Source: Escherichia coli
GTDB taxonomy: Bacteria; Pseudomonadota; Gammaproteobacteria; Enterobacterales; Enterobacteriaceae
Length of the DNA: 64,000 nucleotides
Direction: 5' to 3' (one strand)
NCBI RefSeq assembly: GCF_017348835.2
Contig: NZ_CP071375.1
Shown: in pieces, positions 4,530 to 5,593 of the stretch
Position numbering within the stretch: position 1 is the first letter of the stretch
Layout: each line of letters opens with the position of its first letter
Made by a program: the position numbers and the translations under genes
The notes under the pieces: model-generated
What the model was told of the DNA's origin: nothing
Database searches by the model: none
What the model saw: the letters and a program-made list of their open reading frames with translations, nothing else

Positions 4530-5426
4530 TTATACAAAAAGTGACAAAAAAGATCGGGTTTGATCACAGTCAGGGATCCCGGCTCGTCCACCGGGACGCG
4601 TGCATTTCAACGCCGCTACACCGCTGGCGAAGCGGACTGACTCCGCTAAATCCCCACCTGTTGCCAGCGCCACCGCCAATGCGCCGTGAAAAACATCACC
4701 CGCACCTGTGGTATCTACCACATCAACTTTGAAGGCCGGTTGATGTTGACGCCCGCCATTTTCCAGCCAGTCACAGCCTGCGCTGCCCTGAGTCACATAG
4801 ACATGACCATTTGTGAGCGTTTGTGCCTGTTTTAGCGCACTGGCCATCTCTTTCACGCCCGTTAAGCGCGCCAGACCCGGTTCTGAAAAGGCCGCGTGAT
4901 CGCTTAATGCCACCAGCTCGCTGATGTCCTGCGGCGTAATGTCCCCGTCCAGAACGGTCATCACGCCCGCCTGCCGGGCCAGAGTGAAGGCTTTTTTAGC
5001 ACCGTCGTGCCAGCGTACATCTGCCAGCACAACATCCCACTGAGAGAAATCAATTTCCTCCAACCACTCTGCGTCAGGCAGCAGGTCCGGGCTGGGGTAG
5101 TTAATGATTATCCGCTCGCCTTTGGCATCCACCATGATGGCGGATTGCGACGATTTCGCCTGTTTATACCGTTTGGTGTAGCGGGTGTTAACGCCCCAGG
5201 ATTCCAGCTCTGCCAGCAGGCTGTTGCCGGTGTCGTCATCACCGACGCGCCCAATAAAATCAACCTGCGCTCCCAGTCTTGCCGCCGCAACCGCTGCCGT
5301 CGCCGCTGGCCCGCCACCAACTTCCGTATAATTTCTCGCCACGTATTTACCGCTCTCCGTCGGTAACCCTTCCACGTAATAGATGCGATCCATCACGGTT
5401 ATACCTACACAAGCAACACGAATCAT
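4530..5426 (-). CDS. yihV: PfkB-family sugar kinase, 6-deoxy-6-sulfofructose kinase (YihV)
   Basis: ORF 4530-5432; ribokinase/PfkB signature DTTGAGD; divergent from yihU. Confidence 0.85.
   Translation of the reverse strand: MIRVACVGITVMDRIYYVEGLPTESGKYVARNYTEVGGGPAATAAVAAARLGAQVDFIGRVGDDDTGNSLLAELESWGVNTRYTKRYKQAKSSQSAIMVDAKGERIIINYPSPDLLPDAEWLEEIDFSQWDVVLADVRWHDGAKKAFTLARQAGVMTVLDGDITPQDISELVALSDHAAFSEPGLARLTGVKEMASALKQAQTLTNGHVYVTQGSAGCDWLENGGRQHQPAFKVDVVDTTGAGDVFHGALAVALATGGDLAESVRFASGVAALKCTRPGGRAGIPDCDQTRSFLSLFV
4536..4545. promoter_or_regulatory. AAAAAGTGAC decamer, copy 1 of 3 (candidate CsqR operator element) upstream of csqR
   Basis: Exact decamer read in sequence; same decamer recurs at 5480-5489 and 5561-5570. 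Confidence 0.35.
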
Positions 5427-5479
5427 GGTCATTCCTTAAACATTTTGGGATGCGTTCATTTTAATTTCACCAATTGTTT

Positions 5480-5570
5480 AAAAAGTGACGGCTGTCAATT
5501 TTTTGACTATAAATTACAAATACGATCAAAAACAGACAATCAAAGCGTGTCATAAATGACAAAAAGTGAC
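5480..5570. promoter_or_regulatory. yihV-yihU divergent control region with two exact AAAAAGTGAC decamers (candidate CsqR operators)
   Basis: Decamers at 5480-5489 and 5561-5570 in the 160-bp AT-rich intergenic region between divergent yihV and yihU. Confidence 0.4.
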
Positions 5571-5593
5571 ATCACTGTATTCAGGAGAAGGTT

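Follow-up and report, generated by a model that had tools for sequence, protein, structure and literature searches.

A decamer shared by three promoters of the sulfoquinovose cluster is probably a recognition box for the repressor CsqR

Few organosulfur compounds are as abundant as sulfoquinovose, and sulfoglycolysis has its model pathway in the yih cluster. In Escherichia coli K-12, the repressor CsqR (YihW) controls yihUTS, yihV and csqR (PMC5816610, PMC8006165, PMC8464067 and PMC12608037, and Shimada 2019 as described in papers citing it). Both the yihU/yihV spacer and the csqR upstream region have been assayed by EMSA and gSELEX; CsqR binds both fragments, sulfoquinovose releases it and relieves repression, and csqR is autoregulated (PMC8006165, PMC12608037, PMC8249747). 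Binding is cooperative and polymer-like, and the repressor is oligomeric, forming a tetramer or octamer (PMC10991401). The published resolution of CsqR binding consists of ~300-bp probes and one 41-bp ChIP-exo site, and no CsqR consensus, box, operator or footprint was found in the literature searched, which covered Shimada 2019 through the papers that cite it.

CsqR resembles E. coli DeoR, GlpR, AgaR and UlaR in having an N-terminal DeoR winged helix-turn-helix and a C-terminal sensor domain of the sugar-phosphate type. Like CsqR, other repressors of the DeoR family have several operators per control region, form oligomers and overlap promoters. E. coli DeoR and GlpR use palindromic half-sites, and the statement in an earlier note on this DNA that DeoR-family repressors typically bind direct repeats was over-generalised.

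We analysed the corresponding locus in a 64-kb window of E. coli DNA (64,000 nucleotides; the window is this whole stretch, and all positions refer to it). The window and the K-12 system share the same genes, the same two control regions, the same regulator and the same decamers, and the K-12 control regions contain the three decamers and the inverted copy listed in Table 1. K-12 coordinates were converted as window position = 4079165 minus the NC_000913.3 position, with an offset of 1977 between U00096.2 and U00096.3, and the conversion was checked against the yihV start and glpA. The earlier note had named the genes as csqR, yihV and yihU, had located three exact decamers in their control regions and had proposed these as candidate CsqR operators giving both autoregulation and operon control. 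The gene identities and the decamers were confirmed, and the two modes of control agree with the studies cited above, in which both regions are CsqR-bound and csqR is autoregulated. The repressor-operator system, with its inducers and target regions, is already known and the motif alone is new, and the finding therefore adds sequence detail only. What is new is the conservation of the decamer in ~57 loci, its placement on mapped promoters and the recovery of TTTGTCACTT from four cassette types. The decamer with its TGTCAC box is a sequence-level proposal added to the published K-12 CsqR system, an incremental refinement of a conventional repressor-operator system that involves no new kind of mechanism.

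Table 1. Features of the csqR, yihV and yihU control regions, in window positions.
Feature	Positions	Strand	Remarks
csqR (yihW)	3711..4496	-	DeoR-family repressor; Pfam HTH_DeoR and DeoRC
csqR -10 element TATAAA	4529..4534	-	in the yihV stop-codon region; conserved in the alignment
yihV, sulfofructose kinase	4530..5426	-	3' end carries the csqR promoter and S1
S1, AAAAAGTGAC	4536..4545	+	last five codons of yihV; csqR promoter -13 to -22
CRP-like site	4556..4577	.	core 7/10; centre 4566.5; separate from S1
Near-invariant 82-bp block	5457..5538	.	holds the yihV -10 hexamer, S2, the inverted copy and the central boxes
yihV -10 hexamer TAAAAT	5458..5463	-	conservation 0.99; start at 5451
S2, AAAAAGTGAC	5480..5489	+	yihV promoter -29 to -38, -35 region
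Inverted copy, AAAAATTGAC	5494..5503	-	one mismatch to AAAAAGTGAC; conservation 0.98
In vivo YihW/CsqR ChIP-exo site	5507..5547	.	converted from K-12 coordinates
Weak central box, TTTGTAATTT	5511..5520	-	inside the ChIP-exo site
Weak box, AAAACAGACA	5529..5538	+	two mismatches to AAAAGTGACA; conservation 0.89; inside the ChIP-exo site
Box, TTTGTCATTT	5554..5563	-	one mismatch to TTTGTCACTT; 10 bp from the S3 box, same orientation
S3, AAAAAGTGAC	5561..5570	+	24-33 bp upstream of the yihU ATG
yihU, sulfolactaldehyde reductase	5594..6490	+	first gene of yihUTS

A scan of the window found exactly three copies of AAAAAGTGAC (S1, S2 and S3), all on the + strand and all in the yih control regions, against 0.13 expected; shuffled 64-kb windows held 0.13 copies on average and never reached three. 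S1 and S3 share the longer 13-mer ACAAAAAGTGACA. Elsewhere in the window, copies with one mismatch occurred at the chance rate. The enrichment count suggested in the earlier note turned up the exact decamer only twice, each time in coding sequence, when 300 kb of unrelated K-12 DNA were scanned. The DNA sampled in all came to 364 kb, from which ~30 copies per K-12 genome are extrapolated. Across 494 kb of orthologous loci, there was no exact copy beyond the three conserved positions and one orthologous coding site in fabY. Degenerate copies were counted with AAAAGTGACA, a 10-mer that overlaps AAAAAGTGAC and is shifted from it by one base. At two mismatches or fewer, the 167-bp yihU/yihV spacer contained five such boxes, compared with none or one in each of 39 other AT-rich 167-bp windows and 0.28 in composition-matched shuffles (P for three or more, 0.0024). 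The concern raised in the earlier note, that the decamer might be common throughout AT-rich intergenic DNA, was thus not borne out.

Two further sets of candidates were discarded. Near-matches that recur in other genera at about -3090, -3920 and +4212 from the yihV ATG were rejected as extra operators, as they fall within the coding sequences of yihS, yihR and fabY and reflect orthologous coding conservation. Minor YihW ChIP-exo peaks were considered as independent instances of the motif, and the glpA and ssuE promoters that were examined contained no box. A consensus promoter/terminator scan flagged nothing at any of the decamers.

All three decamers overlap core promoter elements: S1 lies in the promoter of csqR, S2 in that of yihV, and S3 at the yihU starts or beyond them. 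The published yihV start at U00096.2 position 4071737 (PMC5816610) corresponds to window position 5451, and the -35 hexamer of this promoter reads ACTTTT. Because a copy with one mismatch lies in inverted orientation at 5494-5503, S2 is one arm of an inverted repeat, AAAAAGTGAC-ggct-GTCAATTTTT, centred on 5491.5 and hence -40.5 from the yihV start. The 4-bp spacer between the arms (5490-5493) varies, with a conservation of 0.69. The earlier note had described the two spacer copies as a direct repeat about 80 bp apart; this holds for strand and spacing, the starts of S2 and S3 lying 81 bp apart, but it overlooks that S2 is half of an inverted repeat.

At the opposite edge of the spacer, S3 coincides with the nearer of the mapped yihU starts and lies downstream of those farther away (-15, -25, -35, -62/63 and -82/92; PMC5816610). 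Together with the adjacent box, it reads TGTCAC-TTTT-TGTCAT. The Pho box of PhoB (CTGTCATAWAWCTGTCAY) and the sites of OmpR, both winged-helix response regulators, are likewise tandem TGTCA direct repeats. S3 resembles the Pho box in its TGTCA core, A/T spacer and head-to-tail order, a likeness of binding mode only; the period is 10 bp at S3 compared with 11 bp in the Pho box, and S3 has no link to phosphate control. A regular array of 10-bp-phased tandem boxes (TGTCTGTTTT, TGATCGTATT, TGTAATTTAT and so on) was attractive by eye and was dropped, the lag-10 autocorrelation not being significant (z = 1.6 in the E. coli spacer and 0.5-1.8 in the cores of five diverged loci). In the CsqR region, unlike in other DeoR-family operators, copies run in both direct and inverted orientation and show no demonstrated regular phasing, and the box has no known sequence relation to the palindrome of DeoR or the half-site of GlpR. 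Toward the centre of the spacer, the stretch 5509-5518, which overlaps the weak central box, has a conservation of 0.975, and the position homologous to this box in the Klebsiella variant reads TTTGTGACTT.

The published csqR start, at -27/-28 from the ATG (PMC5816610), corresponds to window positions 4523/4524. S1 lies directly upstream of the csqR -10 element, around which TATAAAAT covers 4527-4534, and 40-49 bp upstream of the csqR ATG (4496). It is at the same time part of the C-terminal codons of yihV (..L S L F V stop, with the stop codon at 4530-4532). Conservation of third codon positions is 0.83 in the last 16 yihV codons compared with 0.48 upstream (p = 1.3e-4), and S1 is kept at synonymous sites. 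Nearly all orthologous loci retain S1 within one mismatch; in the locus where csqR is not downstream (L014), S1 is lost. The csqR promoter segment 4528-4555 and the central spacer segment 5500-5527 are alike at 20 of 28 positions. The CRP-like site beside S1 is probably the CRP site published at -41.5 of the csqR promoter (PMC5816610).

The decamers are kept at fixed positions in ~57 Enterobacterales loci. Column conservation over 57 loci was 0.97 at S2, 0.98 at the inverted copy and 0.80 at S3, compared with 0.38 in the adjacent linker. Within S3, conservation is high in the TGACA part and lower in the A-tract, and an exact copy occurs in only 5 of the 57 loci; the S2-S3 distance is 80-81 bp in nearly all genera sampled. 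An E. coli strain with 94% identity differs at 75 positions over 1301 bp, with no difference in the decamers and none in 4497-4580. Conservation alone cannot pick out the boxes, because the entire 82-bp block is invariant. Protein searches for wider CsqR lineages returned only Enterobacterales and one Aeromonadales genome, Dongshaea, and a second search, started from the Dongshaea protein, led back to that clade.

Comparison of diverged cassettes provided a second view of the motif. Four diverged cassette types share an identical CsqR helix-turn-helix, VSTQT(V/I)RRDI.KLSEQ, the only differences being one V/I and one R/Y exchange. An unbiased search of the eight control regions of these types, with a model of one site per sequence, yielded TTTGTCACTT, the core of AAAAAGTGAC. 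Its information content was 10.7 bits against a null of 9.13 ± 0.29, a significance that is overstated because homologous sequences count as independent in the null. All four spacers are enriched in boxes, partly at non-homologous positions, and so are three of the four csqR promoters; the csqR promoter of the Klebsiella variant had none. Across the four types, then, the motif is kept where the recognition helix of CsqR is kept. By inspection, TATTTGT is also invariant in all four. The E. coli short-type cassette retains the central block at 28 of 31 bases, S1 at 9 of 10 and S2 at 7 of 10, and S3 is absent. Long- and short-cassette regulators nevertheless bind each other's DNA (PMC12608037), and exact spacer decamers are therefore not needed for binding.

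The motif recurs more often than chance allows, is conserved and lies on promoters. The decamers are a real, functional and conserved element that most likely provides strong CsqR boxes within a larger cooperative operator, and they are probably recognition boxes for this known repressor. For the whole explanation, in which they are the best-matching copies of a ~10-bp CsqR box in such an operator, we estimate a probability of roughly 55%. The proposal in the earlier note that they are CsqR operators is partly supported, in that all three lie within CsqR-bound fragments (the published EMSA probe primers map to 4438-4743 and 5359-5693), are conserved and fall on promoters, but the ChIP-exo site maps between the two spacer decamers.

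We infer that CsqR contacts the decamers themselves and that the box is read by a winged helix. On the yihV-sense strand, the box would be TTTGTCACTT, a TGTCAC core followed by a T-tract. A single winged-helix domain would fit this arrangement, its recognition helix entering the major groove at TGTCAC and its wing lying across the narrow minor groove of the A/T stretch. Boxes of graded quality would fill the two known CsqR-bound regions: the spacer edges would carry strong boxes (S2 paired with its inverted copy, S3 with the tandem box beside it), the invariant centre would carry weaker ones, and the csqR promoter would have one strong box, S1. When sulfoquinovose is absent, CsqR would occupy the boxes and oligomerise cooperatively over ~100 bp of the spacer, which would cover the yihV -35 region at S2 and, at S3 and the centre, the yihU starts and leader. 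Autorepression of csqR would be weaker, coming from one box directly next to the -10 element. Sulfoquinovose, its glycerol glycoside or sulforhamnose would bind the C-terminal DeoR sensor domain and cause CsqR to be released. More tentatively, and at less than even odds, CsqR may nucleate at the strong edge boxes S2 and S3 and fill the weak-box centre cooperatively, with a complete csqR promoter and operator embedded in the ~14 last yihV codons and constraining their synonymous sites. If true, this reading would give the sulfoquinovose regulon its first operator model at the sequence level.

The most serious competing explanation, which we consider unlikely, is that CsqR has its true operator in the invariant central block at ~5507-5547 (TGATCGTATTTGTAATTTAT and its neighbours). 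The decamers would then make no contact with CsqR and be conserved as promoter parts or as sites of another factor, and their likeness would reflect a shared promoter architecture. The YihW ChIP-exo site (K-12 4071641-4071681, signal/noise 168; PMC8464067 supplement), the sole base-resolution in vivo datum, lies exactly there. It overlaps no exact decamer, S2 ending 18 bp to its left and S3 beginning 14 bp to its right, and it holds only weak boxes with two or three mismatches. The earlier note had regarded footprints mapping elsewhere as evidence against its operators, and the position of this site off both spacer decamers comes close to that outcome. No ChIP-exo site is reported at S1 in the same supplement. 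The central block is also the part best kept between the long and short cassettes, whose regulators cross-bind, and it carries the invariant TATTTGT; S2 moreover coincides with the yihV -35 region, and S1 abuts the csqR -10 element. A central operator nevertheless leaves unexplained why the same 10-13-mer stands at three promoters on different reading strands. It also does not account for the CsqR-bound yihV/csqR fragment, which lacks the central block and whose partial likeness to it is centred on S1, or for the recurrence of TGTCAC boxes at non-homologous positions in diverged spacers.

It is very unlikely that the decamers are cAMP-CRP half-sites (AAAaGTGA, like AAATGTGA), with the S2 inverted repeat serving as a class II CRP site of the yihV promoter. 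Purified CRP does bind the yihU/yihV and yihV/csqR fragments (PMC5816610), and the yihV promoter lacks a -35 hexamer. The S2 repeat, aGTGA-N6-TCAaT, has the 5-6-5 geometry of the cAMP-CRP site (TGTGA-N6-TCACA), is flanked by A-rich DNA as that site is, and likewise lies near -41.5 of the promoter. However, S2 and its inverted copy match the CRP core at only 7 of 10 positions and the site overall at 13 of 22, the weaker arm has a T where the key G is expected, and this core score is common by chance, occurring 198 times in the window. S1 and S3 are single half-sites with no second one at CRP spacing, and in the csqR promoter the CRP site already described is found near 4566, upstream of S1. CRP was therefore rejected as the source of all three copies.

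An even slimmer prospect is that the decamers are sites of another regulator, for example CsgD, or a module of UP element and -35 hexamer (an A-tract followed by GTGACA/TTGACA). The E. coli CsgD box is AAAAGNG(N2)AAAWW, and the yih operons of Salmonella are reportedly AgfD/CsgD-dependent. S1 reads AAAAGTGACAAAAA and fits the CsgD consensus perfectly, whereas S2 and S3 do not match the second half of the box. This consensus was not found in the literature searched; PMC7922415 cites Gibson 2006, whose title ties the yih genes to AgfD. As to a promoter module, GTGACG in S2 lies 17 bp upstream of a TATAAA at 5508-5513, but only S2 has a -10 hexamer at the proper distance, 16-18 bp downstream on its own strand. 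S1 and S3 have no -10 element and are directed away from coding sequence or into it, and a simple promoter scan called none of the three decamers. Strongly disfavoured is the idea that the word repeats simply because promoter DNA is AT-rich and full of T-tracts, and that it has no specific role: the spacer has a G+C content of 32% and the word is A-rich, yet composition-matched shuffles never reach the observed counts, other AT-rich windows hold one box at most, and the word is kept across genera and at synonymous sites.

If the decamers are indeed CsqR boxes within a cooperative operator, the defined box (TTTGTCACTT, the AAAAAGTGAC family) would permit directed operator mutations, tighter or constitutive expression systems and prediction of the regulon in other Enterobacterales. 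It would also offer a sequence-level lead on the poor sulfoquinovose response of short-cassette strains such as Nissle 1917; in the short-cassette spacer of the Nissle 1917 type, S3 is missing and S2 is degenerate.

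The decamer AAAAAGTGAC occurs three times in the window, at the positions that the earlier note had listed (S1, S2 and S3) and nowhere else, and K-12 carries the identical set of copies (three decamers and an inverted one). The segment 4400-5700 is 100% identical in the pig strains PE164 and F2_81, and this long form of the locus is present in 4025 of 5426 complete E. coli genomes. As described earlier, S1 lies upstream of csqR (yihW), but it also falls inside the coding end of yihV, which had not been noted; it shares the 13-mer ACAAAAAGTGACA with S3. S2 and S3 had been read as a direct repeat of the yihU/yihV spacer. 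The copies are indeed exact, but S2 is adjoined by an inverted copy with one mismatch and is thus one arm of an inverted repeat, AAAAAGTGAC-ggct-GTCAATTTTT.

Control-region features and decamer copies (window coordinates unless stated)
Feature	Position	Strand	Remark
csqR (yihW)	4496 to 3711	minus	
yihV	5426 to 4530	minus	
yihU	start 5594	plus	
S1, exact AAAAAGTGAC	4536-4545		within last five codons of yihV, upstream of csqR
S2, exact AAAAAGTGAC	5480-5489		yihU/yihV spacer
S3, exact AAAAAGTGAC	5561-5570		yihU/yihV spacer
Inverted decamer copy, one mismatch	5494-5503		adjoins S2
csqR transcription start	4523/4524		converted from mapped start
csqR -10 element TATAAAAT	4527-4534		
yihV transcription start	5451		
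yihV -10 element TAAAAT	5458-5463		
fabY decamer site	+4190 to +4217 from yihV ATG		L004, L013, L022, L030, L032, L033, L036, L049, L057

Shuffled versions of the 64-kb window contained a mean of 0.13 decamer copies and never reached three, and six 50-kb slices of unrelated K-12 DNA held two, both in coding sequence. Relaxed copies numbered five in the 167-bp spacer versus zero or one in other AT-rich stretches of the window, showing that the word is not common in AT-rich DNA; composition-matched spacer shuffles gave 0.28 (P for three or more = 0.0024). Both sets of shuffles exclude a purely compositional origin. One-mismatch decamers elsewhere in the window were at chance level, without excess. 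Across 494 kb of orthologous Enterobacterales loci, the exact decamer was found at the S2 position 43 times, at S1 34 times and at S3 five times, and no others were detected apart from one orthologous site in the fabY coding sequence of nine Citrobacter/Enterobacter loci, a recurrence that we took as coding conservation.

CsqR, a DeoR-family repressor with Pfam domains HTH_DeoR and DeoRC, binds the spacer and the region upstream of csqR by gSELEX and EMSA, forms large cooperative complexes visible by AFM, and dissociates from the DNA in response to sulfoquinovose, sulfoquinovosyl glycerol and sulforhamnose (PMC8006165, PMC8249747, PMC12608037, PMC10991401). One group's published probe primers map to 5359-5693 and 4438-4743, and the bound fragments therefore include all three decamers, in agreement with the proposal that these regions are CsqR targets. 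No CsqR consensus or footprint was found stated in the literature searched. The primary CsqR paper (Shimada 2019), as related by a citing paper, is said to have identified three YihW binding sites.

For csqR, transcription was mapped to start at -27/-28 relative to the ATG, and for yihV at -25/-27; yihU has several mapped starts upstream of it, and a CRP site is reported at -41.5 of the csqR promoter (PMC5816610). After conversion (window = 4079165 minus the NC_000913.3 position), S1 covers -13 to -22 of the csqR promoter, immediately upstream of the -10 element. S2 spans -29 to -38 of the yihV promoter, where the -35 hexamer is ACTTTT. S3 is located 24-33 bp upstream of yihU's ATG, where it coincides with the proximal yihU starts and is downstream of the distal starts. 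At each of these positions, bound repressor would interfere with RNA polymerase. An automatic ORF call places the csqR start further upstream, at a GTG at 4520 (269 aa); the ATG at 4496 (261 aa), which is the annotated start, is favoured because the mapped start leaves essentially no leader before the GTG.

Among 60 syntenic yihV loci from a one-genome-per-species scan (62-98% protein identity), almost all had copies with at most one mismatch at the same three positions. Across genera from Escherichia to Yersinia and Hafnia, an 82-bp spacer block (5457-5538) is almost unchanged; column conservation was 0.97 for S2 and 0.98 for the inverted copy, with 0.69 for the 4-bp gap between them and 0.80 for S3. 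The 13-bp linker at 5539-5551 is poorly conserved in sequence (0.38) and kept in length. The one large linker change seen, in locus L014 (MAG UBA5654), removes exactly 10 bp, a hint that helical phase between S3 and the conserved core may matter.

Around S1, third-codon conservation was 0.83 over the last 16 yihV codons versus 0.48 over the preceding 12 (p = 1.3e-4), substitutions in several genera replaced Phe with Tyr or Ser and otherwise kept the DNA word, and L014, the one locus without csqR downstream of yihV, has lost the T-tract and -10 element. These sequence comparisons indicate that the constraint on S1 is regulatory rather than coding. A 94%-identical E. coli strain has 75 differences over 1301 bp, with zero in the decamers and zero in 4497-4580. 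In L014 (2240-3400), yihU and csqR are both missing and the yihV 3' end lacks S1 and the csqR -10 element; its yihT/yihV spacer still holds the conserved core including S2, a putative operator retained without a nearby regulator gene.

We then compared CsqR proteins from the long, short (Nissle-type), Klebsiella pneumoniae-type and Dongshaea marina cassettes, which are 67-72% identical overall. Their helix-turn-helix, VSTQT(V/I)RRDI.KLSEQ, is invariant save one V/I and one R/Y change, so all four would be expected to share one DNA specificity. From the eight control regions, an unbiased one-site-per-sequence motif search recovered TTTGTCACTT, which is the decamer's core read on the opposite strand, with 10.7 bits versus 9.13 +/- 0.29 in shuffles, a null that is too generous because the sequences are homologous. 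Boxes with at most two mismatches occur two to three times in each of the four spacers, where about 0.28 would be expected (P = 0.001-0.03); some of their positions are non-homologous, and three of the four csqR promoters have one box. The csqR promoter region (4528-4555) and the central spacer (5500-5527) agree at 20 of 28 positions.

Taken together, we consider it somewhat better than an even bet (about 0.55) that CsqR recognises a box consisting of a TGTCAC core plus T-tract, of which the decamers are the strongest copies. In the spacer, several boxes of graded strength would build a long cooperative operator, while the single strong box S1 adjoining the -10 element would confer autoregulation; published cooperative binding, promoter positions and conservation are consistent with this reading.

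The published in vivo site maps elsewhere. Tagged-YihW ChIP-exo in K-12 yielded a single strong site (signal/noise 168; U00096.2 4071641-4071681) and lists none at S1 (PMC8464067 supplement). With the U00096.2 to.3 offset of 1977, verified on the yihV start site and on glpA, the peak converts to 5507-5547, between S2 and S3 and overlapping neither. The DNA beneath it is the spacer's most invariant part, and the decamer is represented there only by weak relatives, ATAAATTACA at 5509 and AAAACAGACA at 5529. The short cassette (1327 E. coli genomes; 64.5% DNA identity to the long form) agrees with this central block at 28 of 31 bases and retains 9/10 of S1, 7/10 of S2 and none of S3, with TGTCA repeats on the other strand in its place. 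Regulators of the two cassettes bind each other's DNA (PMC12608037), and with these losses the exact spacer decamers are neither sole nor essential determinants. In the main alternative, which we regard as improbable, the central block alone would be the operator and the decamers would serve promoters or another factor; with graded boxes, the peak would be the centre of the complex, its best cross-linked part. A CRP site can be argued weakly, and for S2 only, whose 7/10 core match has a score reached 198 times in the window. A CsgD box would account for S1 only, the sole decamer fitting what we take to be the CsgD consensus. A regular 10-bp repeat array across the operator failed its test for 10-bp self-similarity.

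In the short-cassette locus L063 (E. coli NCTC9066, 4530-4701), the yihU-proximal TGTCA repeats are on the strand opposite to S3; box orientation is flipped and the central block fixed. Minor ChIP-exo peaks lie in the promoters of ssuE (sulfonate-sulfur utilisation; NC_000913.3 about 997546-997577) and glpA (about 2352631-2352636), neither of which contains a box (L065, L064). The glpA promoter is regulated by GlpR, also of the DeoR family; both peaks may be cross-binding or ChIP background.

The repressor, inducers, targets and autoregulation of the sulfoquinovose system are already known; added here are a candidate for the recognition sequence, the extent to which it is conserved, and the placement of the csqR promoter/operator within the yihV coding end. 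Although unsurprising to specialists, the candidate box and its conservation are useful for designing footprinting and mutation experiments.

Elsewhere in the cluster, yihR and yihQ have between them a gene (9679-10554) for a 291-aa protein of the TauE/SafE family (sulfite/sulfonate exporters). K-12 lacks it, only the flanks aligning, and the Dongshaea marina sulfoquinovose cluster also has a TauE gene (L067 111-983); in some strains the product may serve the pathway as an accessory exporter. Of the cluster's two permease genes, yihO is split by an IS3-family element (about 14166-15962; also L066 3774-5913 and 22773-24563), and the window strain probably lacks a functional YihO. In the PE164 annotation, a segment that runs from the middle of yihO via csqR as far as yiiE and is bounded by two IS3 copies has the opposite orientation to the K-12 gene order.
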